This document shows, piece by piece, positions 7,999-64,000 of a DNA stretch of 64,000 bases. The stretch spans positions 113,943-177,942 of the forward strand of contig CAVSJS010000007.1 of NCBI GenBank assembly GCA_963728325.1. Reading direction: 5' to 3'. A program made the position numbers and the translations under genes. Numbering within the stretch: the stretch's first letter is position 1; every line of letters starts with the position of its first letter. Source of the stretch: an uncultured Actinomycetes bacterium. GTDB taxonomy: Bacteria; Actinomycetota; Thermoleophilia; Solirubrobacterales; 70-9. Below the pieces are notes generated by a model. The model searched no databases and was not told the DNA's origin. It saw only the letters and a program-made list of their open reading frames with translations.

Positions 7999-8830
7999 CT
8001 AGTCGCAGTAGGCGAAGGCAGTCAGCTTGGGGTGGCCGATGACCGCAAAGGCGATCGCCTGCCAGCCGCGCTCGCCCGAGCGCCTCGATGCGTGGACGAT
8101 GCCGATGTCGTCCGTGTCGAGCTCGTCCACGGCCCGCGAGAACTCGGCCTGGAAGCCGCCGGAGCGCAGTTCCTCCGTTTGCTTGCACTGCGCAACCACC
8201 GACTGGTTGAACCGCACGGTCTGGCTTGTGGTGATGGCCTTACTCCTCAACTTCAATCCGGGTTCATGCGGGTCGCAGTAGACGAAGGCGGTGTACTGAC
8301 GAGGATCGGCGCCCGGGTTGTACGAAGGCCACCCTCCAGGTGCGTATGTCGGTGCGCCTCGAGGTCATCAGGTAGCTGTTCGCGTCCGGAGCGTCGAAGC
8401 CACCCGACACAGCCTCCTCCCCGAGCCCGCACTGCGCGCTGGCCCCGCGCGCACTGCCGCCTGGAACGGTGAACTGCGCCGACCTGGTTGTCAGCGCCGG
8501 GGTGGGCTGATCGCAGTAGACGTACGCCGTGGCCGTTCCGTCCCCGCCGGGGTTTCGGACTCGAAGACGCCAGCCGCGACTTCCCTCACGGGTCGAGTCG
8601 AGCGCCGCCATCGCTGGCCCCTGCTCCGTCAGGGGGGCGTAGAACCCGCCCGAGACAGCCGTCTGGCCGCACGTCGCGACCCGCTGGCGCGTCTCGCTCC
8701 CCGCCACATCGAAGCTGTTCGACTGCACGTTCAGCGCCGCAGCTGCCAGGCCGGCTGTCGCCAAGAGAGCGGCGCCGCTGGCCGCCACCAGGACTGCGGT
8801 CGCTCGCCGCCGGTTGGCTCCCAGGCGCAT
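7999..8830 (-). pseudogene. Secreted protein built from three ~85-aa Cys-framed modules, family unknown. One frame break as assembled.
   Basis: Signal-like RRRATAVLVAASGAALLATAGLAAAA. The pattern C...SGGF...GW...(Y/F)(V/A)YCD occurs three times. ORFs 8264..8830 and 7999..8256 join if one G is removed from CCCGGG at 8312..8317. Confidence 0.5.
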
Positions 8831-8841
8831 GGCAGGACGCC

Positions 8842-10249
8842 CTAGAACTCGCAGCTACCGTTGACCGTGTCCGCGCCGTCGGGGACGTTTGTGTCGGTGC
8901 CCCCGTTGGTGCAGTTGATCGTGTCGGCCCCGCCCTCGCCGTTGAGGAAGTCGCCGAAGGTGCTGTCGGTGAGGGTGTCGTTGCCGAGTCGTCCGAATAG
9001 CGACACGGCCTGGTCGGCGGCTGTCGCGTTGATCGTGTCGCCGCTGGAGTTCCCGATCACCCGCTCGATGTCGCCGTTGACGTTGTCGCCTGTGTTGCCG
9101 AAGCCGTCGTTGTCGTCCGCGACGTCATCGAGGTCGACGCTGATCCCTCCTCCTCCGGTGAAGGGGAACCCGTAGGTCACCGTGTCGAAGCCCGCGGCAC
9201 CCGTCGTCCCGTCACCATTGAAGATGTCGTTGCCCTCGCCGCCGCCCATGAAGTCGGCGCCGTTGCCGCCGGAACAGGTGTTGGGATCGCCGTTGAGAGT
9301 GTCGGTTCCGGTCGCTGTGCCGTTGGCGCTACTGGGATCGCCAGCGAAGGTGTTCGCGAAGCAACTCCCGGTGATCGTGTCAGCGAGTGGTGCTCCCGGT
9401 GACGGACTCGACCGTGTCCCGGACGTTGCTGTCGTCGGACCCCGTGTCTGCGCAGCTGTCGTCGTTGGCGACGTTGTCCATGGTGATGTTGATCGCCTGC
9501 GCCGTGCAGGTGTAGGTGTGGCCGGTGATGATGCCGAACACGACCCGGTCGATTCCCGAGCCGCCGTCGAGGTCGTCGTCATCGTTGCCGTTCGGTCCTC
9601 CGTCCAGCCGGTCGTTCCCGGCGTCGCCGTTGAGGTCGTCGTCATCAAGGTCACCGATCAGCGTGTCGTTGTCGTTACCGCCGTTGAGCGTGTCGTTCCC
9701 CTCACCGCCGCTGAGCGTGTCGGTCCCGTCGCCACCGTTGAGCGTGTCGTTGTTGTCGCCGCCGTTGATTGTGTCGGCGCCGGGCCCGCCGCTAAGGATG
9801 TCGTTCTTGCGCTCGCCGTCGATGGTGTCACCCTGGGAGCCGCCGGTGAGGGTGTCAACGCCATCACGCCCGGGAAACGTCACCGGAACCAGGGTGACGC
9901 CCGAGGCATTGCCGGTGTCGGCGGTGTTGCCCGTGCCGAGGTCGAGCACGATCGATGTCACTCCGGCATTGCTGCAAGTAAGGGTGTCGCCCGAGGGTGC
10001 GTTGCAGCCGCCGCCATTGGTCGGGTTGACGCTCGTATCCGTGAACACGAAGTTCCCGGCGGATTCGGTGACGGTGAGGGTGTTCGTCGTAGAGTCGCCC
10101 AGGAACGTGATGGTGCTCCCGGACTTGGTCACGGACCCGGCCGAAGCGACGGCGGGAACGGCGGCGAGAGCCGCGAGCGCCAGCGCGACGGTCAGCCCTG
10201 CGCGCCGATAGGCGCCTCCGTCACGACGACTCATGCTGCTCGACGACAT
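8842..10249 (-). pseudogene. Secreted calcium-binding, RTX-like (GGxGxD nonapeptide) repeat protein. One frame break as assembled.
   Basis: Signal LTVALALAALAAVPAVASA. Repeats run LTGGSQGDTIDG..LSGGPGADTINGGDNNDTLNGGDGTDTLSGGEGNDTL. ORFs 9380..10249 and 8842..9654 join if one base is removed from CCCGG at 9395..9399. Confidence 0.6.
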
Positions 10250-52068: not shown

Positions 52069-52788
52069 CTATTTGATCGGGGCGGCGCGGATCGTGTCCG
52101 TGGTAGTCAGGTGAAGCTTTCGGGCCGTCCTCTGGGTCAGGTCCCAGCGAACGCCACTTGCGTACGGGCCGCGATCGATCACCCGGGCCCTGACGTAGCG
52201 GCTGCGATATTTGAGTGTCACCTTGGTCCCGCAGGGAAGGTTGCGATGGGCGACGCCGATCGTCTTGCGCCGCAGCGTCTGGCCGCAGGCGGTGCTCCCG
52301 CCGAAGAAGCCGGGCCCGTACCAGGTGGCGACGCTCTTCGGCATCGTGCGGACGACCTTCTTGCGCGTCTTGCTGCCCACGACGCCGTCGCTGTGCAGGC
52401 TGTGGCGGCGCTGGAAGCGCCGCACCGAGCGGGCGGTCGGATTCTCGAAGTCCTTGCCCAGCGGCACGCCGTAGGACTTCGCTTTCAGGATCCAGTGGAG
52501 CGTCTTGACGTCGCCTCCGCAATCCCCGAGGTCGAGCGCCCGGGAGCCGAACCGCATCGCCGGGCACTCGCTGGAACCCCCGCCGCGCGCGGATCCCGTG
52601 CCGCCGGAGCCGGCCCGGGCGCTGGTCGCGGCCGCGACCATGGCGATCACGGCCATCGCGACCGCCCAGAAGGCGATCCGGTCGGGGCGGCGCAGCGGCC
52701 GGTCTCTGACCGGCCGGCCCGCTCCCGGCGCCGGTTGCCGCCTGCGGTATTCGATTTCCACCCGCGAACGGGAGGCGCCTTCGTACAT
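52069..52788 (-). CDS. RlpA-like double-psi beta-barrel cell-wall protein with a peptidoglycan-binding domain
   Basis: TM anchor. PG_binding-like GGDVKTLHWILKAKSYGV...RSVRRFQRRHSLHSDGVVG. DPBB: ATWYGPGFFGGSTACGQTL...VAHRNLPCGTKVTLKYRSRYVRARVIDRGPY. Confidence 0.7.
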   Translation of the reverse strand: MYEGASRSRVEIEYRRRQPAPGAGRPVRDRPLRRPDRIAFWAVAMAVIAMVAAATSARAGSGGTGSARGGGSSECPAMRFGSRALDLGDCGGDVKTLHWILKAKSYGVPLGKDFENPTARSVRRFQRRHSLHSDGVVGSKTRKKVVRTMPKSVATWYGPGFFGGSTACGQTLRRKTIGVAHRNLPCGTKVTLKYRSRYVRARVIDRGPYASGVRWDLTQRTARKLHLTTTDTIRAAPIK

Positions 52789-52940
52789 CTGCTCTTTCGG
52801 TCGCTTACGGGGTTAGCTGACGGGCTCGCGCCGAAAGAAGGCGCTACGCGGCAGTCGCCTGCGATTCGCCCCAGAGAAAACTGGGTCCCCCGATCCCCGC
52901 GGCTATGTGGCGGGGATTCAGCCGGAAGCTCGCGGCATCC
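52789..52940 (-). promoter_or_regulatory. ydaO/yuaA-type (c-di-AMP) riboswitch in the 5' leader of the RlpA-like gene
   Basis: The minus-strand RNA contains CUGAAUCC, GGGGGACCCA, GGGGCGAAUC and CCCGUCAGCUAACCCCGUAAGCGACCGAAAGAG immediately before the ATG. These match the conserved ydaO segments as I remember them. The class is known upstream of actinobacterial cell-wall hydrolase genes. Confidence 0.7.
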
Positions 52941-53898: not shown

Positions 53899-54297
53899 CT
53901 ACTCCCGGAGGAGGCCCGCGGCTTCGAAGGCCTCGCGTCGTTGGTAGAACCACTGAAATCGGACGATGGCTCCGCCGCTGACGGTCCAAAGGTGGAATTC
54001 GGGTCGCTCCGCTTCCATTCCGCTTCCTCGGCCATGACCGCGAAAGGTGACCGCCACGAGCACCTTGTCGTGCGCGTCAATGAAGTCCTCCGGAGTATGC
54101 GTGGGCTCGTCCCACGCCATCGCTGTTGCCGCGAAGGCGTCCCTGACCCCTTTGTGGCCACTACGGAGGCCGGGCTCGATTGCATCGCTCGGACTGATCC
54201 ACTCGATGGCCGGGTCCAGCAACCGCAGCAGTGCGTCCAGGTCGGTGTCGAACACCTCGTACGCCCGACGCACCACTTCGACGCCTTCCCGCGACAT
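53899..54297 (-). CDS. NTF2/SnoaL-like array cistron 14 (last full one)
   Basis: MSREGVEVVRRAYEVF...FIDAHDKVLVAVTFRGHGRGSGM...AFEAAGLLRE. Its stop is followed by GCG and a head-only stub ATGTCGCAGGAGAAC that runs into the terminator. Confidence 0.75.
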   Translation of the reverse strand: MSREGVEVVRRAYEVFDTDLDALLRLLDPAIEWISPSDAIEPGLRSGHKGVRDAFAATAMAWDEPTHTPEDFIDAHDKVLVAVTFRGHGRGSGMEAERPEFHLWTVSGGAIVRFQWFYQRREAFEAAGLLRE

Positions 54298-54300
54298 CGC

Positions 54301-54702
54301 CTACTCCCGCAGCCCGGCGGCTTCGAGGGCTTCGGCCTTGCTACGGCAACGACGCCACCAGTTGGTCTTCTTGTCGTGCCACTCGGTGACCACCCAGGAC
54401 TTCTGCTCGGTGGGGGCGTCGCTCCCCATGCCTTGGCCACTGAGCCGCACCCGCGCGACCGTCACGTCTCCAAGGTCTCGTACATCGTCGAGCTCCGATC
54501 TGAAATCGGGGAAGACGCCGAACAGGTTCTCCCACCAGCTTCGGACACCGTCGTGGCCGCGGTAGGAGCCGCCCCCCTTCACCTCCAGGGTGCGCGGGAT
54601 GAACTCGATGTCGGGGTCGGAGAGCGCGAGTACGGAATCGATGTCGCGCCGGTTGATGGCAGCAGTTAATCGGTAAACCAGCTCCGCGTTCTCCTGCGAC
54701 AT
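54301..54702 (-). CDS. NTF2/SnoaL-like array cistron 13
   Basis: MSQENAELVYRL...YRGHDGVRSWWENLFGVFPDF...AEALEAAGLRE. It is preceded by a leader copy (54703..54751). Confidence 0.75.
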   Translation of the reverse strand: MSQENAELVYRLTAAINRRDIDSVLALSDPDIEFIPRTLEVKGGGSYRGHDGVRSWWENLFGVFPDFRSELDDVRDLGDVTVARVRLSGQGMGSDAPTEQKSWVVTEWHDKKTNWWRRCRSKAEALEAAGLRE

Positions 54703-54751
54703 CGCCCGCGCAGTATCTCGCTCTGGTCCGTGGGTAGCGCCACGGCTCCCA
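54703..54751 (-). promoter_or_regulatory. Array leader element, copy 1 (partial)
   Basis: Minus strand: GGGAGCCGTGGCGCTACCCACGGACCAGAGCGAGATACTGCGCGGGCG, followed by the ATG. Confidence 0.45.
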
Positions 54752-54771
54752 GACGTAGAGCTTCATTTAGA

Positions 54772-55155
54772 TCATGTTGCTACGCCGGCCGCCCGCAGGG
54801 CCGTCTCGGGGTCCTGGAACATCTCCACGCGCGCGATCTTGCCCTCACGGAGCGTGTAGACCCAGCCCGCCCGCTCCTCGACTTCGACACCGCTCTCCTT
54901 CGCCTTACCGACTTGGTGGTAGAGCAGAACAACTCTGTCGCCTGAGGCGACGAGCTGGTCCACCTCGAAGCGGTACTCGCTCCACATCTCCTCCCACCTC
55001 TTCGCTTCCGCGACCACCCCGGCGGGCCCGTGGAACCGCTCGAGCGATGTGGCCACTTCGACGTCGTTTGCAAATGCCGGCAGCGCGGCTTCGTAGTCGC
55101 CGCGGAGGTAGTTCTCAAGCATCTCGCGGACGACGGCGACGTTCTCCTGCGACAT
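54772..55155 (-). CDS. NTF2/SnoaL-like array cistron 12 (variant tail)
   Basis: MSQENVAVVREML...GDRVVLLYHQVGKAKESGVEVE...TLREGKIARVEMFQDPETALRAAGVAT. It ends in TGA rather than TAG. Confidence 0.75.
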   Translation of the reverse strand: MSQENVAVVREMLENYLRGDYEAALPAFANDVEVATSLERFHGPAGVVAEAKRWEEMWSEYRFEVDQLVASGDRVVLLYHQVGKAKESGVEVEERAGWVYTLREGKIARVEMFQDPETALRAAGVAT

Positions 55156-55158
55156 CGC

Positions 55159-55563
55159 CTACTCCTGAAGCCCGGCGGCTTCGAGGGCTTCGGCACGGTC
55201 GGAGTAGTTGTCGAGTCGCGTGACCCAACCGTCGCGGACCGTGGCGACCTGAGCCATCGCCAACTCCATCGGAACGCGACTGCCTCGACCCTTCCCTCGG
55301 TGGCAGAACAGGCTGACCACGCGGCCGTCCGGCGCGGCGAGAACGTCTTCGACGGTGATCTCATAGTCGTCCCACACCTCGAGCCACTCTTCCAAGAAGC
55401 GCTGAACCCCCTCGATGCAGTGATAGTCGGACTCGGGCCAGTCCCGAAAGTGGCTCGTATCCCAGACGATCTCAGGATCCCAGTTGCGAAAGAGGCCGGG
55501 CAGATCATCACGAAGCCACGCGTCCCAGCCTTGGCGGATGATCTCCACGTTCTCCCGCGACAT
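55159..55563 (-). CDS. NTF2/SnoaL-like array cistron 11
   Basis: MSRENVEIIRQGWDAW...GRVVSLFCHRGKGRGS...AEALEAAGLQE. Start taken at ATG 55563. The ORF extends upstream through the leader. Confidence 0.75.
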   Translation of the reverse strand: MSRENVEIIRQGWDAWLRDDLPGLFRNWDPEIVWDTSHFRDWPESDYHCIEGVQRFLEEWLEVWDDYEITVEDVLAAPDGRVVSLFCHRGKGRGSRVPMELAMAQVATVRDGWVTRLDNYSDRAEALEAAGLQE

Positions 55564-55620
55564 CGCTCGCGCAGTATCTCGCCCTGGCCTGCGGGCCGCC
55601 AGGGCCACGGCTTCCATGAG
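55564..55620 (-). promoter_or_regulatory. Array leader element, copy 2
   Basis: Minus strand: CTCATGGAAGCCGTGGCCCTGGCGGCCCGCAGGCCAGGGCGAGATACTGCGCGAGCG, followed by the ATG. Confidence 0.45.
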
Positions 55621-55793
55621 TCGGGCGGGTTCCCGTCAATCAGCCTGCCGAGGCTGGAGGTACCGGTCGCCGCCTGACCGCCCCTGCACAAAAGGGGCCG
55701 CATCCGACGCGTTCGCGGAGGACGCTCAGGTGCTGCCACCCTTGCTCATGGAGATCTCCAGCGGCTAGAAGCGTCTAGCGAAACTCGACACGG

Positions 55794-56201
55794 CTACTCC
55801 CGCAGCCCGGCGGCTTCGAAAGCTCTCGCTTTGTCAAGAAAGCTGCGGATGCGAACGGTCTTCCCGTCCCGGAGCGTCATGATGAAGCACCAGTTGAGGA
55901 ACTGCGTCTCCCGGTCCGTCGCCCCGAGCGGGTGTCCGAGGGCCGTGATGACGGCCAGTACGTCGTCACCTCCGAGGTCGATGAGTTCGTGGATGTCGAC
56001 GCGAAACGCGCCGATCGCTCGGATAAAGCCTTGAAGATAGGTTCGGACCGCCTCTTGACCGGAATACTCACCCGGCTCCGGAACGAGCGGGTCGGTATGC
56101 CAGACGATCCCCGGATCCCAGAACCGCTCCATCCCCGACAGACCCTCGGTGTTGAAGGCCTCGAAGCCTCTGCGGACGATCTCCACCTTCTCCTCCGACA
56201 T
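55794..56201 (-). CDS. NTF2/SnoaL-like array cistron 10 (monocistronic unit)
   Basis: MSEEKVEIVRRGFEAFN...LIDLGGDDVLAVITALGHPLG...TLRDGKTVRIRSFLDKARAFEAAGLRE. Confidence 0.75.
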   Translation of the reverse strand: MSEEKVEIVRRGFEAFNTEGLSGMERFWDPGIVWHTDPLVPEPGEYSGQEAVRTYLQGFIRAIGAFRVDIHELIDLGGDDVLAVITALGHPLGATDRETQFLNWCFIMTLRDGKTVRIRSFLDKARAFEAAGLRE

Positions 56202-56258
56202 CGCCCGCGCAGCATCTCGCTCTGGCCTGCGGGCCGCCAGCGCCACGGCTTCCAGGAG
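56202..56258 (-). promoter_or_regulatory. Array leader element, copy 3
   Basis: Minus strand: CTCCTGGAAGCCGTGGCGCTGGCGGCCCGCAGGCCAGAGCGAGATGCTGCGCGGGCG, followed by the ATG. Confidence 0.45.
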
Positions 56259-56344
56259 TTGGGCGGGTTTCCCTTTAGGGCTGGCTGCCGTCCTTGCTCG
56301 TGGGACTACCAGCCCCTAGAAGCGTCTAGCGAGACTCACCACGG

Positions 56345-56740
56345 CTACTCCCGCAGGCCGGCGGCTTTGAGGCCCTCGGCTCGGTCGAAGTACTCCTCCA
56401 CCCGCACGACCTTGCCGTCGCGAAAGGTCCAAATCTGCGCCTGCTCCATCTCCACCGGAGCGCCAGAGGTGATCCCCTTGCCCGAGAACCGAATCCAGGC
56501 GAAGACCTTGTCGCCCGCGTCGATCAGCTCCTCCGCGCGAAGTTCGATGCCATCGAACATTCCCGACCACTGGGCGAAGTAGCCGCCTATCGCCTCCAGT
56601 CCCCGATGGGTCGCGGCGTCCGGGTCCTCGCGGGCCGCCATCCACTCAGCGTCGGAGTCGTAGATCTCAGGCAGGACCTCGCCGGTCCGGCTGAATTGCT
56701 CCTGTTGGCGGCGGACCGCCTCGACGTTCTCCTGCGACAT
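56345..56740 (-). CDS. NTF2/SnoaL-like array cistron 9
   Basis: MSQENVEAVRRQQEQF...LIDAGDKVFAWIRFSGKGITSGAP...TFRDGKVVRVEEYFDRAEGLKAAGLRE. Confidence 0.75.
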   Translation of the reverse strand: MSQENVEAVRRQQEQFSRTGEVLPEIYDSDAEWMAAREDPDAATHRGLEAIGGYFAQWSGMFDGIELRAEELIDAGDKVFAWIRFSGKGITSGAPVEMEQAQIWTFRDGKVVRVEEYFDRAEGLKAAGLRE

Positions 56741-56743
56741 CGC

Positions 56744-57148
56744 CTACTCCGAAAGCCCAGCCGCTTCGAGGGCCTGGGCGCGATTGAGGAAGATCTCGGA
56801 GCGAATGATCTTCCCGTTGCGCATGGTGATCACGTCGTAGCGGTCGAACTCCACCGGCACTCCGCTTCCTGCGCCGGTGGCCGCGACGTGGGTGTTGACG
56901 AGAAGCCGGTCGGGACTCTCGAGTTCGGTGATACCCCGGATGTTGATGTCGAAGGTCTCGGCCACCTCCAGGGCGCCCTTCATGCTGGCGAGGGCAGCCT
57001 CTCGGCCCTTGCCCTGGCCCTCGTCCGGCCACTCGGGCGGGAGGCGAAACTCGACCTCGGGATCAAACCCCTCAAGCCAGCGTGCGAGGTCGCCGCGTGC
57101 GAGCGCGTCGATCTGCTCTCGCAGTCTGTCGACGTTCTCCTGCGACAT
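56744..57148 (-). CDS. NTF2/SnoaL-like array cistron 8
   Basis: MSQENVDRLREQIDAL...TMRNGKIIRSEIFLNRAQALEAAGLSE. Confidence 0.75.
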   Translation of the reverse strand: MSQENVDRLREQIDALARGDLARWLEGFDPEVEFRLPPEWPDEGQGKGREAALASMKGALEVAETFDINIRGITELESPDRLLVNTHVAATGAGSGVPVEFDRYDVITMRNGKIIRSEIFLNRAQALEAAGLSE

Positions 57149-57151
57149 CGG

Positions 57152-57496
57152 CTACTCCGAAAGCCCGGCGGCTTTCATGGCGTCGGCCCTCTCCCAGTAG
57201 CTCCGCTCACGCGAGAACACGAGAACCTCATCGCCCCCTGCGTCGATGAATTCCTCCGGCTTCATTCGGTAGTCCTCGATCGCCTCGAGCAATGTGGTGA
57301 TGCAGTCGCGTACCCCCTCGTGTCCGAAACGAGATTCCGCGAGGTCGGGGAACTCGCGCGGACCGCGCCAGTCAATCGCGGGATCGAGCCACTCGAAGAT
57401 AGCCTCAAAGTCCCCTCTCTCAAAGTCGCCGCTGGCGAAGCCTTCCACCAAGGCTGCGTAGTGGCGCCGGACCAACTCCACGTTCTCCTGCGACAT
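57152..57496 (-). CDS. NTF2/SnoaL-like array cistron 7 (short, 114 aa; apparent in-frame loss of the last beta strands)
   Basis: MSQENVELVRRHYAAL...FIDAGGDEVLVFSRERSYWERADAMKAAGLSE. The RGxGxxSG...RDGK segment seen in its neighbours is missing. Confidence 0.65.
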   Translation of the reverse strand: MSQENVELVRRHYAALVEGFASGDFERGDFEAIFEWLDPAIDWRGPREFPDLAESRFGHEGVRDCITTLLEAIEDYRMKPEEFIDAGGDEVLVFSRERSYWERADAMKAAGLSE

Positions 57497-57499
57497 CGC

Positions 57500-57901
57500 C
57501 TACTCCTGAAGTCCGGCTGCTTCGAGGGCCTGCTCAGGAGACGCGTACACCTGGGCACGCTGAATCTGGTTGCCCTGGACGGTGTAGACGATGCCGTAAT
57601 CCATCTCCACCCACGATTCGCTGTCGCGAAGAAGCCCTCGCTGGTGAAGGACCGCCAGGACCTCATCTCGCTCGGTGTCGATGATGTCCTCGACCTCTAT
57701 CTGCCACTCCGCGTAGGGCTCGATCCACCTGCGAAAGAAGCCCATGAACTCTTCGAGGCCATGGAACTCGCCCCGGTCGACCCAGCCCTCGAATGTCGAC
57801 ATGTCCCATACGAAGTCCGGGGAAGTCTGCGCGATGATCCGGGACAGGGCGGGAGTGTCCGAGAGGATGCGGCGGACCGCCTCGACGTTCTCCTGCGACA
57901 T
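57500..57901 (-). CDS. NTF2/SnoaL-like array cistron 6
   Basis: MSQENVEAVRRILSDT...IIDTERDEVLAVLHQRG...PEQALEAAGLQE. Confidence 0.75.
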   Translation of the reverse strand: MSQENVEAVRRILSDTPALSRIIAQTSPDFVWDMSTFEGWVDRGEFHGLEEFMGFFRRWIEPYAEWQIEVEDIIDTERDEVLAVLHQRGLLRDSESWVEMDYGIVYTVQGNQIQRAQVYASPEQALEAAGLQE

Positions 57902-57904
57902 CGC

Positions 57905-58333
57905 CTACTCCTTGAGCCCAGCGTCCACGAGTGCGCGTTCGGGTTGAGTGAGGTATTCCTGGCCTCGTACGAGCCTGTCCCCGCGAAAACCAAAGCGGTG
58001 CGCGTATGGAGCATGGACCTCGACTCCTGCCTCGCGACCACGCGCATAGATGTGGCCGACGGCGACCACCTCGTCCCCTGCATCGTGCAGCTCCCTTGGC
58101 TCCCAGCGGAACTCCTGCCAGGGCTCAGCGTGGCGTTCGAAGAAGTCGCGGATCGCGGCCTCCCCGCGAAGTCCATGCGGGTCGATGTCGTTTTCGTCGG
58201 GCTGCCACTCCGCATCGGGATCGAGGATGGCGAAGAAGGCGTTCACGGCTCGCCCGAAGCTCTCAGAATCGGCCCGGTCGAACCGGACTTCCGCGTAGAG
58301 CTTGCGCACGACCTCCACGTTCTCCTGCGACAT
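57905..58333 (-). CDS. NTF2/SnoaL-like array cistron 5
   Basis: MSQENVEVVRKLYAEV...LHDAGDEVVAVGHIYARGREAGVEV...PERALVDAGLKE. Confidence 0.75.
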   Translation of the reverse strand: MSQENVEVVRKLYAEVRFDRADSESFGRAVNAFFAILDPDAEWQPDENDIDPHGLRGEAAIRDFFERHAEPWQEFRWEPRELHDAGDEVVAVGHIYARGREAGVEVHAPYAHRFGFRGDRLVRGQEYLTQPERALVDAGLKE

Positions 58334-58336
58334 CGC

Positions 58337-59140
58337 CTACTCCTTGAGTCCGGCGGCTTCGAGGGCCTCGGTCCTGCTTCTGTAAGTGCGCCAATGGACA
58401 CATTTCCTGTCCCGCACCTCAGCGACTTGCCAGACCGTCTCCTCAACAAGCACGCCGCTACCAGCGCCCTGGCCGCGAATCCGGACGGTGGCAATGGTCA
58501 AGTCTCCGCTGCTGCGTACCTCGATCGGCTCCACACTGAAGTCGTCGAAGATGGCCAGGAGGTTCTCCCACCAGTTCCGGACACCGTCGTGGCCGTGATA
58601 GGTGCCTCCTTCAATGCCGAGCGTCCGCGGTATTGCCTCCACATCGGGGGCCATGAACGTGAGGAAAGCATCGAGGTCGCGACGGTTGAAGGCGTCATAA
58701 CTGCGCCGCACAAGCTCCACGTTCTCCTCCGACATCGGCCACTCGGACCGCCCGGCGGCTTCGAGGGCTTCGGCCTCGCTCTGAAAGGCGTGCCACCAAA
58801 CGATCCGCTTGTCGCGGACGCGAAAGAGCCCCCAGTAGGTGCGCTCAAACGCCGCTCCGCTCGCAGCGCCGTGTCCACGAAGGCACCCGCGCACGAAGAT
58901 CAGCTCCCCCAGATCCCGAATCTCGTGCAGCTCAACCTTGAAGTCGGGCAGGGTCTCAAATGCCTCGTCCCACCAACGACGTACATCCTCATGGCCGCGG
59001 TAGGGCCCGAGGCCCTCGATCGCCCGCTCGTACGGCGTGAACTCCTCGTCAGGGTCGTGGAGTGCCAGGTAGGCATCCAGGTCTCGCTGGTTGAAGGTTT
59101 CATGCCCTGCCCGCACGATCTCCACGTTCTCCTGCGACAT
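58337..59140 (-). CDS. NTF2/SnoaL-like array cistron 4: two domains fused by loss of the inter-cistronic stop
   Basis: MSQENVEIVRAGHETF...AEALEAAGRSE-W-P-MSEENVELVRRSYDAF...TEALEAAGLKE. At 58739..58741 the junction reads TGG where the other junctions read TAG. Confidence 0.75.
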   Translation of the reverse strand: MSQENVEIVRAGHETFNQRDLDAYLALHDPDEEFTPYERAIEGLGPYRGHEDVRRWWDEAFETLPDFKVELHEIRDLGELIFVRGCLRGHGAASGAAFERTYWGLFRVRDKRIVWWHAFQSEAEALEAAGRSEWPMSEENVELVRRSYDAFNRRDLDAFLTFMAPDVEAIPRTLGIEGGTYHGHDGVRNWWENLLAIFDDFSVEPIEVRSSGDLTIATVRIRGQGAGSGVLVEETVWQVAEVRDRKCVHWRTYRSRTEALEAAGLKE

Positions 59141-59143
59141 CGG

Positions 59144-59545
59144 CTACTCGCTCACCCCGGCGGCTTCGAGGGCCTCGTCACGACTGGCGAAGAAGTCTTG
59201 CCGGATGATCTTGCCGTCGCGCAGGGTCATGACCTGCGTCGTCTGCTCAGAGATTGGTACCCCGCTGGCGCGACCTTTTGCCCGGTGGTTAGTCACCACC
59301 AAGACACGATCGCCCCAGTCGCGGGACTCCTCGACCTCCATCCGGTAGTCCGGATCGAATCGGCTGAACCAGTCCGTGAGCCAATTGATGGCTCCCTTCT
59401 TTCCCGAGACAGTCTCGGCTCCGGCGAGACGGCGCGACTCACCATGAAAGACGAGTGTCACGTCTTCCGCAAGCGCGCCAATCGCCTCAGCAAGGTCGGT
59501 GGCCTCGAAATACCTGACGGCGATCTCCACGTTCTCCTGCGACAT
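59144..59545 (-). CDS. NTF2/SnoaL-like array cistron 3
   Basis: MSQENVEIAVRYFEAT...WGDRVLVVTNHRAKGRASGVP...TLRDGKIIRQDFFASRDEALEAAGVSE. Confidence 0.75.
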   Translation of the reverse strand: MSQENVEIAVRYFEATDLAEAIGALAEDVTLVFHGESRRLAGAETVSGKKGAINWLTDWFSRFDPDYRMEVEESRDWGDRVLVVTNHRAKGRASGVPISEQTTQVMTLRDGKIIRQDFFASRDEALEAAGVSE

Positions 59546-59548
59546 CGG

Positions 59549-59950
59549 CTACTCCGAGACTCCGGCGGCTTCGAGGGCCTCGTCGTACTCCCAGAAGTAC
59601 CGCGCGCGGACGATCCTTCCGCCTCGCAAGAGGAATACGGCTGCCATCGGCGTGTCGAAGGACATTCCGGTGTCCCTGCCCCGAGTTACGTAGCGAATCC
59701 GGGCCAGCACCTGGTCGTCGCCGACGGGACGAATCTCGTCCACCTCGACACGAGCCTCCTCCCAGGAGTCGCGCAAGCGCTCAGCCTGCCGCCTCCACGC
59801 CTCGATCCCCTGCGGCTCCTCTCCCTCGGGCCACCCTTTCGGCGGCGTCACGACGACCTCAGGGTCCCAATGCTCGGCCCATCGATGCCAGTCTCCCTTC
59901 GAGAAGAGCTCGTTCACGCGGCGCACGACCTCCACGTTCTCCTGCGACAT
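59549..59950 (-). CDS. NTF2/SnoaL-like array cistron 2
   Basis: MSQENVEVVRRVNELF...VGDDQVLARIRYVTRGRDTGM...LLRGGRIVRARYFWEYDEALEAAGVSE. Confidence 0.75.
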   Translation of the reverse strand: MSQENVEVVRRVNELFSKGDWHRWAEHWDPEVVVTPPKGWPEGEEPQGIEAWRRQAERLRDSWEEARVEVDEIRPVGDDQVLARIRYVTRGRDTGMSFDTPMAAVFLLRGGRIVRARYFWEYDEALEAAGVSE

Positions 59951-59953
59951 CGC

Positions 59954-60355
59954 CTACTCCCGCAGCCCGGCGGCTTCGAGGGCCCGCTGTTTCTCCCAGA
60001 ACGCCTCCCAGCGAATGATCTTGCCATCGCGTAGCGTGAACACTGCCGCGGCTAGGGCCTCAACCTCGATGCCGTCTCGTCCGGTGAAGTGCTCGACGCT
60101 GACGAGCAGGACCTTGTCGGTACCCACCGCACGAATTTCCTTTGGATCGGTCCGGTGCTTCTCCCAAGCCTCGTTGAACGAATTGAACTGCTTCCGGACT
60201 TCCTCGCGACCGCGAGCCACGCGCGGAGAGGGTGACTCCGGTGGATCATGGAACTCGATGTCGTCCGCGAAGAACCTCCGGGCGGCAGCTTCTGGGCCTT
60301 CCGTGTTGAAGACTTCGGCGGCCTTCCTGATGACCTCGATGTTCTCCTCCGACAC
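59954..60355 (-). CDS. NTF2/SnoaL-like array cistron 1
   Basis: (V)SEENIEVIRKAAEVFN...VGTDKVLLVSVEHFTGRDGIEVE...TLRDGKIIRWEAFWEKQRALEAAGLRE. GTG 60355 was chosen because the longer ORF (to 60547) would overlap the leader, the terminator and rnpB. Confidence 0.7.
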   Translation of the reverse strand: MSEENIEVIRKAAEVFNTEGPEAAARRFFADDIEFHDPPESPSPRVARGREEVRKQFNSFNEAWEKHRTDPKEIRAVGTDKVLLVSVEHFTGRDGIEVEALAAAVFTLRDGKIIRWEAFWEKQRALEAAGLRE

Positions 60356-60480: not shown

Positions 60481-60504
60481 AAAACCCCGCCGGAGCGGGG
60501 CTTT
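60481..60504 (-). terminator. Rho-independent terminator after rnpB
   Basis: Minus strand: AAAG-CCCCGC-TCCG-GCGGGG-TTTT. Confidence 0.65.
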
Positions 60505-60507
60505 CCC

Positions 60508-60882
60508 TTAGCAGGCCTGTAAGCCGGATTCTGTCGTGTGCAGCCATCTGTCTTGCCGGGGACTGGGTCCCCGGAGAGCCCCGTTCGCCGGGGCCCTGCG
60601 GCCTACCTGGACCTCGCCGGGCCGGGTCATCGGTCCTGCTCGGCCTTGCACCGGACGGGGTTTACCCTGACGCGCCGCGTCACCGTGGCGCCGGTGCGCT
60701 CTTACCGCACCATTTCACCTTTGCCTGTGCGCGGCTCACGTGAGGCCGCGCCATCGGCAGTGTCGTTTCTGTGGCACTTTCCCGCGGGTTTCCCCGGGTC
60801 GGCGTTACCGACCGTCCTTGCCCTGTGGTGTCCGGACTTTCCTCGAGGAGCGTCACCCCCCGTGACTGCATGGCCTACAGGA
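60508..60882 (-). ncRNA. rnpB: RNase P RNA, bacterial type A
   Basis: The minus strand contains GAGGAAAGTCCGGAC (P4 5' strand, 60830..60844), GGTAACGCC, AAGGTGAAATGGTGCGGTAAGAGCGCACC, and ACAGAATCCGGCTTACAGGCC (P4 3' strand, about 60515..60535). GTAGGCC (60872..60878) can pair with GGCCTGC (60511..60517) as P1. The ends are approximate. Confidence 0.85.
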
Positions 60883-61864: not shown

Positions 61865-61932
61865 TATACTAGCTCGGCCTCGCGGACGGACGCAAGTCGG
61901 CCAGGACGGCCTCTAGAATCGAGCCCGCACCC

Positions 61933-62018
<86 letters not shown>

Positions 62019-62021
62019 CTG

Positions 62022-62053
62022 CGAAGCCCCTGCTATGGCGGGGGCTTCGTCTT
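62022..62053 (+). terminator. Hairpin terminator after tRNA-Leu
   Basis: CGAAGCCCC-loop-GGGGCTTCG, followed by TCTT. Confidence 0.55.
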
Positions 62054-62121
62054 GGGGGAGGGAGCAGCCGAGACGATCTCCGTGCAGGTCGTGGTCCCAA
62101 TACGGTCCCATTTCCCGGCCG

Positions 62122-62170
62122 CCACGGGGGTCGCGATGACCCACCCGATCGTCCGCGGCAGCTTCCCGAC
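62122..62170. repeat. Direct repeat A flanking the chimeric cassette
   Basis: CCACGGGGGTCGCGATGACCCACCCGATCGTCCGCGGCAGCTTCCCGAC aligns at about 80 percent identity with 62934..62985. Confidence 0.6.
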
Positions 62171-62297
62171 CGGGAGCGAGGACGAGATCGCCTCCTCGTG
62201 GCGGATGTCGAGCTACTCCAGCGCATGCGACATACGCGTCGCTGCCGTCGCTGGCTGACGGTCGATCACCCTCACACGGCGCGGCTTGATCCCGGCC

Positions 62298-62864
62298 CTA
62301 CTCCCGCAGCCCGGCGGCTTCGAGGGCCTTGATGCCGACAGGGGTCATCGCATCAATCTCACAGTTGCGAACCACGTCATCAACATCGCAGGTATCGCGT
62401 CCCCGGCCGCCGTCGATGATGTCGCGGCCTGGCCCGCCGAGAAGAAGATCCCAGCCCCGGCCGCCTTTAAGCCTGTCCCGCCCACCGCCACCAATGGCCG
62501 TGTCGCGACCAGCCTTGCCTTTGATCAAATCTTGGCCTTTGCCGCCAGCGAGCAAACCAAAGCGTGGGCGGCCCAGCCCATCCCAGCCCGGTCCCGCCAC
62601 GATCCGGTCGCCTCCTGGCCCCCCACGGATGAAGTCTGCGCCGCCGCGACCATAAAGCTTGTCGGCCCCCGCGCGACCCTCGATGTTGTCGTCGCCCGAG
62701 GTTCCCTTGATCGAGTCTGGCTTCGCGGTTCCGGTGAAGTCGTCCGCGAGCGCAAACGCAGTCGCTCCGCCGACCAGCACCATCGTCAACACGAGCAGCC
62801 GAGTGGTTGCGGTCGTCAGCGAGGACATCGGTTTGGCGTCGGTCTCCACGTTCTCCTGCGACAT
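62298..62864 (-). CDS. Chimeric ORF: the array head (MSQENVE) and array tail (ALEAAGLRE) enclose a signal-peptide-bearing RTX-like GGxGxD repeat protein
   Basis: MSQENVETDAKP-MSSLTTATTRLLVLTMVLVGGATAFA-...GRAGADKLYGRGGADFIRGGPGGDRIVAG...GGGGRDRLKGGRGWDLLLGGPGRDIIDGGRGRDTCDVDDVVRNCE-IDAMTPVGIKALEAAGLRE. An array leader fragment lies upstream. Confidence 0.7.
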   Translation of the reverse strand: MSQENVETDAKPMSSLTTATTRLLVLTMVLVGGATAFALADDFTGTAKPDSIKGTSGDDNIEGRAGADKLYGRGGADFIRGGPGGDRIVAGPGWDGLGRPRFGLLAGGKGQDLIKGKAGRDTAIGGGGRDRLKGGRGWDLLLGGPGRDIIDGGRGRDTCDVDDVVRNCEIDAMTPVGIKALEAAGLRE

Positions 62865-62885
62865 CGCCCGCGCAGTATCTCGCGA
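62865..62885 (-). promoter_or_regulatory. Array leader element, copy 5 (proximal 21 nt only)
   Basis: Minus strand: TCGCGAGATACTGCGCGGGCG, followed by ATGTCGCAGGAGAACGTGGAG. Confidence 0.4.
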
Positions 62886-62933
62886 CGGTCAGTCGATGGT
62901 CTACCCCCTAATGGTCTTTGTTTGGGCGCGATT

Positions 62934-62985
62934 CCAGTGGGGGTAGCGACGTGACCCAGCCGATCATCCGCGGCAGCTACCGGAC
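62934..62985. repeat. Direct repeat B flanking the chimeric cassette
   Basis: CCAGTGGGGGTAGCGACGTGACCCAGCCGATCATCCGCGGCAGCTACCGGAC. Confidence 0.6.
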
Positions 62986-63316
62986 GCCGACCGAGCTACT
63001 GCTATCGAATCCGGTTGTGCGGCGGCAGCTGCTACGTATCAGTGGCGTCGGCGCTTGGCGGATCCGGAACGGCTCGCGCTGGAGCCGATCTACGATCTGT
63101 AGTCATGGCCCTGAAGGTTGTAGACAAGAAGGCTTCCGAGCACCCGGCATACGGGAAGACCCAGATGACCCCGGTGCCGTCGCTGCCCAGGAGCCCCAAG
63201 AAGCCGAAGCATCCCAAGCGCTAAGGATCGCCTCGATATGGCGTCGCACCACCCCCCGCGCTCCCCTGCGATGTCTCCTACCCCGCGGCGATCGACGGAG
63301 TCTCGCGGTCGCCTGG

Positions 63317-64000
63317 CTACGGCTCGCAGTTGACGACGAAGCCGGTTCCAGGCCCCTGATCGCAACTGTCGGTGTCGTCGCCGCCGTTGAGGTAGTCATT
63401 GCCCTCCTCGCCGAAGAGGTCATCGTTGTCCAGACCGCCGGAGAGTTGGTCGTTCCCGCGTCCGCCGAAAAGATCGTCATTGCCGTGCTTGCCGTCTATG
63501 ACGTCAGCTCCCTCGTCGCCAGAGAGCCTGTCGCGGGAGTCGCCTCCATTGATGGTGTCCGCTCCCAGGCCGCCCGAGACGTAGTCGATACGTGGGTCGC
63601 CCCCACCGCCGGGCCTGTCTCCCCAGAGCTTGTCACTGCCGCCACCGCCCCGCAGCCAGTCACGGCCGTCGCCGCCGATCACCCGGTCGGCGCCCTCGCC
63701 GCCGAAGAGCCTTTCGTCCCACCAGTTTTGCTGGCCCAGGAGCACGTCTGCACCCCGCCCGCCCTTGATGTAGTCGGCGCGGGTCCCGCCGTGGATCTCG
63801 TCGGCACCGCGCCCGCCACAGATGATGTCGCGCGCGTCGCGGCCCCGGATGACGTCTTTGCCACCGCGCGCGACGATGACGTCGGGTTGGTTAGTCCCCC
63901 GAATCCGGTCCTGGCCGGGTGTGCCCACGATCGTCGCCCGCTCACCGGAGCAGGTGGCGCGTCTGGCCGCCGCCGGACTGACGCCCGATGCTGCGAGCAA
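63317..64000 (-). CDS. RTX-like calcium-binding repeat protein; the N-terminus lies outside the window
   Basis: GGRGADEIHGGTRADYIKGGRGADVLLG...GGEGADRVIGGDGRDWLRGGGGSDKL...GGLGADTINGGDSRDRLSGDEGADVIDG...GGDDTDSCDQGPGTGFVVNCEP, then stop. Confidence 0.65.
   Translation of the reverse strand: MLAASGVSPAAARRATCSGERATIVGTPGQDRIRGTNQPDVIVARGGKDVIRGRDARDIICGGRGADEIHGGTRADYIKGGRGADVLLGQQNWWDERLFGGEGADRVIGGDGRDWLRGGGGSDKLWGDRPGGGGDPRIDYVSGGLGADTINGGDSRDRLSGDEGADVIDGKHGNDDLFGGRGNDQLSGGLDNDDLFGEEGNDYLNGGDDTDSCDQGPGTGFVVNCEP

Follow-up and report, generated by a model that had tools for sequence, protein, structure and literature searches.

In orphan toxin/immunity arrays (CdiA-CT/CdiI, Rhs), short conserved borders let homologous recombination swap the interiors of genes, leaving stubs behind. 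In silent cassettes, such as Borrelia vls and Neisseria pilS, diverged interiors are bounded by identical short direct repeats, and exchange takes place there. Rickettsia palindromic elements and Neisseria Correia elements are short DNA elements that are translated inside unrelated proteins or supply promoters. The locus considered here lies in a 64,000-nt stretch of DNA (contig CAVSJS010000007.1, positions 113,943 to 177,942; hereafter the window) from an uncultured actinobacterium placed in Solirubrobacterales. The window carries an array of small genes of the NTF2 (SnoaL_2) family and, near it, an open reading frame (ORF) in which the two ends of an NTF2 unit enclose the body of an unrelated, RTX-like secreted protein. 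This chimera is a real mosaic gene inside a decaying NTF2 cassette array beside a tRNA-Leu gene. We favour, with roughly even confidence, the explanation that recombination at the conserved ends put the RTX gene in place of an NTF2 body, and that this gene now relies on the promoter and start module of NTF2. The parts of the chimera are as follows.

62298..62864, minus strand: chimeric ORF of 188 aa, with an MSQENVE start and an ALEAAGLRE plus TAG end
62865..62883, minus strand: leader core of 19 nt, GCGAGATACTGCGCGGGCG, an exact match to the leader of the array and of metagenome contigs
62874-62879, minus strand: −10-like GATACT within the leader core, nine nt before the ATG
62844..62864, minus strand: head, ATGTCGCAGGAGAACGTGGAG (MSQENVE), opening the ORF with 0 mismatches; identical in 6 array units
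62829..62843, minus strand: 5-codon linker TDAKP from the head to the RTX gene's own Met, without similarity to NTF2 units
62751..62828, minus strand: Met13 (62828) and Sec-type signal peptide MSSLTTATTRLLVLTMVLVGGATAFA, aligned to the RTX protein of locus L148 and to database homologues
62358..62747, minus strand: RTX-like body with GGxGxD repeats (Pfam HemolysinCabind, PF00353, E = 2.7e-30, 6 stretches)
62358-62396, minus strand: DTC..NCE, terminal motif of the RTX-like body
62328..62357, minus strand: 10-codon linker IDAMTPVGIK from the NCE motif to the tail, without a match to NTF2 3′ regions
62298..62327, minus strand: tail, GCCCTCGAAGCCGCCGGGCTGCGGGAGTAG (ALEAAGLRE plus TAG), 30/30 nt against array tails

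A first-pass annotation, made from the letters of the window, had described an ORF that opens with the exact array head behind the proximal leader and closes with the exact array tail. Both matches are complete and confirmed. Leader and head together form a 40-mer, GCGAGATACTGCGCGGGCG+ATGTCGCAGGAGAACGTGGAG, found at 62844-62883 without a mismatch (0.00 expected, from 100 dinucleotide shuffles) and matched by three array copies with 1-3 mismatches; over these 40/40 nt the chimera conforms to the 5′ definition of an NTF2 frame, a leader GCGAGATACT-N9 followed by ATGTCGCAGGAGAACGTGGAG. The 19 nt before its ATG equal the proximal leader of three internal array units, and the similarity of its upstream DNA to array leaders ends ~25-29 nt 5′ of the ATG. 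The tail 30-mer, exact at 62298-62327, is also that of the array tails at 59954-59983 and 54301-54330; seven copies with ≤3 mismatches occur in the window, against 0.00 expected by chance, and all 30 nt recur unchanged in loci L003 and L023 and in at least 120 soil contigs. Similarity to NTF2 units breaks off right after the head GAG(A) and resumes right at the tail GCC CTC. Because the modules occur many times in the genome and have a length near that of typical assembly k-mers, a misjoining of unrelated contigs at these 30-40-nt repeats could be suspected. Such an artefact is extremely unlikely: a false join needs the repeat in both partners, so that the RTX body truly adjoins head and tail and only the outer flanks could be wrong, and independent assemblies have a like architecture (L148, L124, L179 and L003).

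Between the two ends, as the first-pass annotation had also held, there is no NTF2 body. HemolysinCabind is the sole Pfam match of the chimera, with none to SnoaL (PF12680), the profile of the ~110-residue alpha+beta cone body of NTF2-like proteins. A hidden Markov model (HMM) of the window's NTF2 bodies gives E>1 only, in every frame, and matches of a full-length NTF2 HMM are limited to its positions 1-8 and 123-132. The GGxGxD repeats and the internal Met with a classical signal peptide had likewise been read correctly; Met13 opens a typical n-h-c signal peptide, in register with the N-termini of RTX homologues. The RTX body is 35-41% identical to the second RTX-like gene of the window (RTX-2) and to the RTX proteins of L148 and L124. 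Neither MSQENVE nor ALEAAGLxE is found in RTX homologues (0/101), which normally end 0-12 residues past a Cys..CysGlu motif, and the idea that the ends are intrinsic to the RTX family is thereby ruled out. Two details of the earlier description need qualification. The RTX gene was said to have gained 19 tail residues: the last 9 are demonstrably tail, whereas the other 10 are the linker IDAMTPVGIK. That it lost its own stop is deduced from sister cassettes, which keep theirs.

The same ends surround other foreign genes. An exact-tail scan of metagenome contigs matched at least 120 soil contigs. Of 134 tail copies, 105 close an ORF with an NTF2 body, and ~20 are orphan tails with an NTF2 body upstream in no frame (contig-end cuts and one frameshifted NTF2 unit set aside). 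Complete frames, running from a head or leader to the next tail and counted in the window and in all loci, number 195. An NTF2 body is present in 182; two of the remaining 13 are a deleted and a degenerate NTF2 unit, and the rest (about 11) are foreign genes. In L148, an RTX-like secreted protein that keeps a start and a stop of its own follows the leader and four head codons, and an exact, untranslated tail starts one codon past that stop. A cation-efflux (CDF) protein is fused in frame to MSQENV in L179. Other frames hold a cupin (L197), a VOC-like protein (L138), two small secreted proteins (L187), a 94-residue protein with no Pfam match that looks ABM-like by eye (L194) and further proteins without family assignment (L157, L188 and L169). 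Three more cases come from the comparison set of 80 LexA loci from related genomes. A 538-residue secreted hydrolase-like protein in L003 ends in ..LDRAEALEAAGLRE, with 32/32 nt of tail; a GNAT gene in L002 starts on the leader plus ATGTC and is followed, 3 nt past its stop, by an NTF2 head; and in L012 the leader and four head codons precede an unrelated gene with its own ribosome-binding site. The proposal that the RTX gene of the chimera was captured between, or replaced the interior of, a head and a tail is supported by these parallels (L148, L124, CDF, cupin, GNAT and hydrolase). The head length kept in foreign cassettes ranges from 5 to 39 nt, and the stop of the foreign cargo often lies only one or two codons before ALE. 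A leader precedes foreign cargo in 11/13 frames and NTF2 units in 49/149 (p = 3.7e-4), an enrichment consistent with cargo that would need this element for its expression. Collectively, the presence of unrelated genes in the same frames in related soil bacteria suggests that the frames act as reusable gene slots. A further mosaic with a part from this family is P0111, a 160-aa metagenome protein in which ~100 N-terminal residues of an NTF2 unit, with its head, are joined to the C-terminus of a short-chain dehydrogenase (..LTGQTLPVEGGATIA).

Both joints of the chimera are in frame, with short, stop-free linkers. Given the high G+C, the chance of this is roughly 0.1, so that in-frame reading is unremarkable in itself; this chance, together with sister cassettes that have separate starts and stops, makes the in-frame fusion probably incidental and not selected. 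That this chance is not small also fits a reading in which random deletions and rearrangements in a decaying array fused an RTX gene to leftover NTF2 ends, giving a neutral or non-functional relic without modular logic. The surroundings do look degraded (a decayed junction after RTX-2, NTF2 traces with E = 0.056 and small unassignable ORFs), and deletion derivatives exist (L133; unit 57152..57496). An inert relic is nevertheless quite improbable, since the breakpoints lie at the inner module edges here and in ~10 other independent foreign cassettes and not at random in NTF2 bodies. Moreover, signal peptide, repeats and Cys motif of the RTX ORF are all intact, the 40/40 and 30/30 identities imply modules that are young or maintained, and foreign cargo is enriched behind leaders.

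The end peptides are a trait of the NTF2 family, since MSQENVE opens and ALEAAGL[SR]E closes most of the 120 top-scoring database proteins related to one array unit (49-94% identity); they are, besides, nucleotide-constrained modules. Codon use was examined in 142 NTF2 gene ends from fetched loci, excluding the exact matches used to find the loci. The Glu codon of the tail is GAA in 96/101 (gene-body background 22%, p = 2e-56) and its Leu codon CTC in 114/117 (background 37%, p = 4e-45). At three Ala positions of the tail, GCC accounts for 82-88% (background 35%), the stop is TAG in 133/142, and the Ser codon of the head is TCG in 150/157 (background 29%, p = 9e-71). Conserved Gly and Arg inside the NTF2 body show mixed codon use. 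Exact tails also occur untranslated, 3′ of the stop codons of unrelated genes. The earlier view that the ends behave as DNA modules rather than only as protein motifs is borne out by this codon use and by the untranslated tails, and the near-invariant GAA (~95% of tails), TCG and TAG point to a function at the nucleic-acid level. Three candidate causes were rejected. For RNA structure, the mean z-score was −0.14 (40 short junctions) and RNAalifold gave no consensus pairs (114 junctions). For antisense coding, stops in the antisense frame interrupt 35% of 251 NTF2 ORFs (0.53 per unit). A covarying hairpin around the start codon, CUGCG..CGCAG, was dismissed by inspection, its tail positions being the variable ones. 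On the plus strand of the window, a 1142-aa antisense ORF (56606-60034) spans 8.5 NTF2 units, with ..HVLLRHRLLPQPGGFEG.. recurring from junction to junction. We put this ORF down to high G+C and in-phase junctions, since elsewhere 35% of the NTF2 units are closed by stops in that frame.

The leader forms a self-contained element of 19 nt, as the DNA upstream of it is without conservation in 68 copies, and it often abuts the preceding stop directly (TAG followed at once by CGAGATACT). Among HMM-defined NTF2 genes, 100 start 3 nt past the previous stop, 49 have GATACT-N9-ATG and 7 are of another kind, so that, once the 100 closely coupled genes are set aside, GATACT-N9-ATG accounts for 49 of the remaining 56. 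Within the tail lies a GGAG for the next cistron, whose start codon follows TAG at a distance of 3 nt, and 100/157 heads are coupled in this way; no GGAG is found in the 9 nt between GATACT and ATG. This layout would fit a −10 element with a very short untranslated leader.

In another explanation of the conserved ends, leader/head and tail are cis-acting RNA or DNA sites (for a regulator, a small RNA or ribosome reinitiation), and genes that acquire them are kept through co-regulation. The extreme synonymous constraint across genomes, including the rare GAA and the near-universal TAG, would fit, as would the GGAG of the tail with its coupled heads and the full modules kept around foreign genes with their own start and stop. 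Such regulon recruitment is improbable. Orphan tails were found by exact match, so that their conservation is not independent evidence, and the tail behind RTX-2 has decayed, which argues against strong constraint once a tail is detached. In addition, the junctions have no conserved RNA structure, no candidate regulator was identified, and many orphan tails, that of the chimera included, are without a following cistron.

In the explanation that we favour, recombination at the conserved ends, the 5′ module comprises the 19-nt leader, with GATACT nine nt before the start, and the first seven codons; the 3′ module comprises the last nine codons and TAG, with GGAG for the next cistron. These ends would be the sole stretches that stay identical among diverged units; recombination would therefore start and stop there, leaving whole interiors exchangeable. 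In an old array next to tRNA-Leu, a Sec-secreted RTX-like gene would thus have displaced an NTF2 body, and would be transcribed from the NTF2 leader. Translation would probably begin at the head ATG of a near-leaderless message, a start favoured by the lack of a well-spaced Shine-Dalgarno sequence for Met13 (the nearest GGAG is 15 nt upstream). The N-terminus would then be MSQENVETDAKP, and the product would carry 12 extra residues in front of its signal peptide and, at the C-terminus, an extension closed by the 9 tail residues. Modules, sharp boundaries, nucleotide-level constraint and recurrence around foreign genes are read directly from the DNA; promoter and start function of leader and head, and module recombination as the putative route, are deduced from them. 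Homologous exchange is supported by the neighbourhoods, which consist of ordinary chromosomal genes.

Several points weigh against this explanation. RecA-type recombination is inefficient on 20-40 nt of identity, and the initial capture must have come about by an illegitimate event. Exchange driven by homology leaves the synonymous conservation of tails across genomes unaccounted for, and a further function of the tail sequence is implied. An intact donor gene, which the first-pass annotation had proposed to seek in related genomes, did not emerge: database searches found no close homologue of the chimera's RTX gene on which breakpoints could be mapped, and neither the exact protein, read from either start, nor the LexA of the window was present in the databases. 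A sigma-70 consensus scan, which requires a −35 element too, finds no promoter at the leader, and the 9-nt spacing from GATACT to ATG is longer than usual for strictly leaderless starts. Finally, tail and foreign ORF share a reading frame in 9/12 cases (p = 0.004, in a small sample partly ascertained by exact tails), which a pure DNA-relic model would not predict. Over 61900-63400, the scan for sigma-70 promoters and terminators gave no promoter, and its single terminator-like site, a weak one, falls within the ORF.

Along the minus strand, the elements follow one another as RTX-2, ~450 nt of poorly assignable DNA, the chimera, tRNA-Leu (plus strand), LexA, RNase P RNA and the 15 NTF2 units. 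The features around the chimera are as follows.

53899..60352, minus strand: NTF2 (SnoaL_2) array of 15 units, most joined as GAGTAG-gcg-ATG
starts at 60352, 56201, 55563 and 54702, minus strand: the four array units with leaders
60502..60881, minus strand: RNase P RNA, class A, 199 bits, directly upstream of the array
52787-52933, minus strand: c-di-AMP riboswitch, 77 bits, upstream of the ORF 52069..52788, just past the other end of the array
61933..62019, plus strand: tRNA-Leu(GAG), by ARAGORN and Rfam; synteny with related genomes stops here (blastn)
62939..62995, no strand assigned: direct repeat of ~57 nt on either side of the chimera, upstream copy, ~82% identical to the downstream copy
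62126..62180, no strand assigned: downstream copy of this repeat
63317..64000, minus strand: RTX-2, cut by the window end, ending in ..VVNCEP (Pfam HemolysinCabind, 2.3e-33)
63256..63289, minus strand: decayed tail-end plus head junction, 27-61 nt 3′ of the RTX-2 stop
8842-10249, minus strand: large RTX-like gene in two overlapping ORFs, 9380..10249 and 8842..9654, ending in ..VNGSCEF

The 6.5-kb array sits in a slot of variable content that is bounded by RNase P RNA and a conserved short-chain dehydrogenase/reductase gene. In the closest genome, whose LexA is 93% identical, both array and chimera are absent, and in the LexA/RNase P neighbourhood of the 80 related genomes the array is absent and other genes occupy the slot. 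NTF2 cassettes lie directly beside the same tRNA-Leu/LexA in three loci: L023 has two intact leader-head-NTF2-tail units, L012 one NTF2 unit and L015 one in the opposite orientation. An intact NTF2 cassette at the position of the chimera, which had been named as a thing to look for in relatives, is thus a common state in the lineage. In L003, a partial second tRNA-Leu-like copy lies ~80 nt past the tail-bearing hydrolase gene, in addition to the intact tRNA-Leu (8545-8630, 9780-9865); this partial copy resembles an insertion footprint at a tRNA.

Variable slots of this kind bring to mind a dedicated mobilisation system, in which the segment from CGAGATACT.. to ..GGGAGTAG would be a mobile cassette moved, as in integrons, by a trans-acting site-specific recombinase, with NTF2 as the commonest cargo and RTX and other genes as occasional cargo. 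The module boundaries are sharp and reproducible. Units abut as TAG directly followed by CGAGATACT in many contigs, while stand-alone leaders have unrelated DNA upstream. Identical frames hold diverse cargo, the ends are conserved at the nucleotide level across genomes, and the slots vary: the array is missing at RNase P RNA in the 80 relatives, and cassettes stand by tRNA-Leu in several orientations. We consider mobilisation rather unlikely. Among 139 neighbour ORFs, no recombinase family had as many as two matches, in a scan that lists the commoner families and could miss single occurrences; the window region and the slots examined in L001 showed none either, though trans-acting enzymes could escape such a search. 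Tail, head and leader show no dyad symmetry or attC-like fold, no identical cassette has been shown in two different contexts, and head remnants of 5 to 39 nt speak against crossover at a single, fixed position. An origin from viruses or mobile elements was rejected on the absence of the leader pattern from a collection of viral contigs, together with the result for the neighbour ORFs. A broader proposal, which we hold to be doubtful, is that soil Solirubrobacterales carry a new cassette system: units with CGAGATACT..ATGTCGCAG as their 5′ boundary and ..GCCGCCGGGCTGCGGGAGTAG as their 3′ boundary would be arrayed and exchanged between slots by a mechanism acting at the boundaries, with NTF2 as the default cargo and RTX proteins, transporters and enzymes as alternatives. 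If so, the chimera would be a cargo swap caught with both joints in frame.

Several observations concern the array itself. At 58337-59140 (minus strand), two adjacent NTF2 units are fused into a 267-aa ORF in which TGG replaces TAG at the junction (..AAGRSEW PMSEENVE..), a natural two-domain fusion via the loss of a single stop codon. At 57152-57496 (minus strand), an NTF2 unit of 114 aa has lost ~30 internal residues (central beta-strands), with head and tail intact; a more extreme deletion derivative, measuring 203 nt from head to tail, is present in L133. Spacers after tails at operon ends (55564-55793 and 56202-56344, minus strand; L170 and L179) begin alike with CCGTGGnGAGnTTCGCTAGACGCTTCTAG, and the leaders of the window have ~55 nt more in common (..TGGAAGCCGTGGCGCTGGCGGCCCGCAGGCCAGAGCGAGATACT..). 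Recurrent hairpins follow tails in other contigs (CCGCTTTGGACGAGAAGCGG, GCTTTGCATGGAAAGC and CTCTGCTTnGCGCGAAAAGCAGAG). These spacers and hairpins may be terminators or small repeat elements.

On either side of the chimera, each copy of the ~57-nt repeat contains on the plus strand a GGGGG ribosome-binding-like site and the first ~15 codons of a small ORF, MTHPIVRGSF.. (40 aa) in one case and VTQPIIRGSY.. (50 aa) in the other. No further copy occurs in the window or in the 80 LexA loci, and the repeat could be a duplication linked to the arrival of the cassette. Its origin as a relic of a tail or NTF2 body was considered and rejected, tail alignment scores being at background and blastx uninformative. 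The small plus-strand ORFs at 62136, 62951 and 63105 have no Pfam match, and between the two RTX genes NTF2 traces are marginal only (E = 0.056).

RTX-2 is 54% identical to the RTX protein of L124, its orthologue. Past its stop, the decayed junction matches GCTGCGGGAGTAGGCGATGTCGCAGGAGAACGTGG at 27/35 positions, a score reached by 0.1% of shuffles and by 0/584 genomic windows; the L124 gene keeps its own stop, and an exact tail starts 18 nt past it, at the same place as the decayed junction of the window. Three RTX lineages, 35-41% identical to one another, are thus associated with the tail. The other two RTX-like genes of the window end, as the first-pass annotation had reported, in ..VVNCEP (63317) and ..NGSCEF (8842). 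The second of these, at 8842-10249, is split by a frameshift, either real or a sequencing error. At the thresholds used, no NTF2 head, leader or tail was matched anywhere in the window outside the array and the chimera, and hence none beside this gene.

The chimera shares GGxGxD nonapeptide calcium-binding repeats with RTX toxins secreted by type I secretion systems. In contrast to these, which have an uncleaved C-terminal secretion signal and linked ABC/MFP export genes, it is small (~150 mature residues), has an N-terminal Sec-type signal peptide and lacks a C-terminal type I signal, its C-terminus being the Cys..CysGlu motif followed by the NTF2 tail. In the part of the window examined, no type I secretion genes adjoin it (the neighbours are tRNA, LexA, small ORFs and RTX-2; export genes farther off were not searched). 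By Pfam, the product is an RTX-repeat protein; its Sec signal and the missing C-terminal signal place it outside the RTX toxins secreted by type I systems.

Should the frames prove truly modular, they would illustrate the way in which soil actinobacteria of a high-G+C lineage assemble and reshape multigene arrays, and how unrelated, even secreted, genes are recruited to a common expression context without recognisable mobile-element machinery. They also call for caution in annotation, as the modules add in-frame N- and C-terminal extensions to unrelated proteins, cause mis-called starts and can break short-read assemblies.

Compared with the systems described so far, the arrangement resembles integron cassettes and clusters of attC sites lacking integrases (CALINs) in its head-to-tail, small, single-gene units, its short conserved junctions and the presence of unrelated cargo in the same frame; as in integrons, new cargo is found preferentially beside the promoter-bearing element. 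It does not qualify as an integron by its sites or its cargo: the junctions have no attC-like imperfect palindrome or fold, and ~94% of the cargo (182/195) belongs to one family. No integrase was found either, in the scan of 139 neighbour ORFs that lists the commoner families. The conserved pieces of the NTF2 frame, moreover, lie inside coding sequence (the first 7 and last 9 codons), and many NTF2 units have a leader of their own (49/157), unlike the cassettes of integrons, which are mostly promoterless, unrelated in function and served by one Pc promoter. In contrast to the toxin/immunity arrays, the NTF2 arrays are without a toxin gene or a large conserved upstream gene, conserve 20-40 nt at both ends of each unit and carry NTF2 proteins with occasional secreted or metabolic genes. 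Unlike vls and pilS cassettes, each NTF2 unit brings a start and a stop codon of its own and is presumably expressed, a single site of expression is lacking, and foreign families are included. The Rickettsia and Correia elements differ in that the NTF2 modules are not palindromic, are the native ends of a protein family and form a matched 5′/3′ pair around a gene. No description of NTF2 arrays with nucleotide-conserved ends, or of foreign genes in such frames, was found in the literature searched. We rate homology-bounded cassette exchange as known in kind; what is new here is that its borders lie inside the coding sequence of a protein family.

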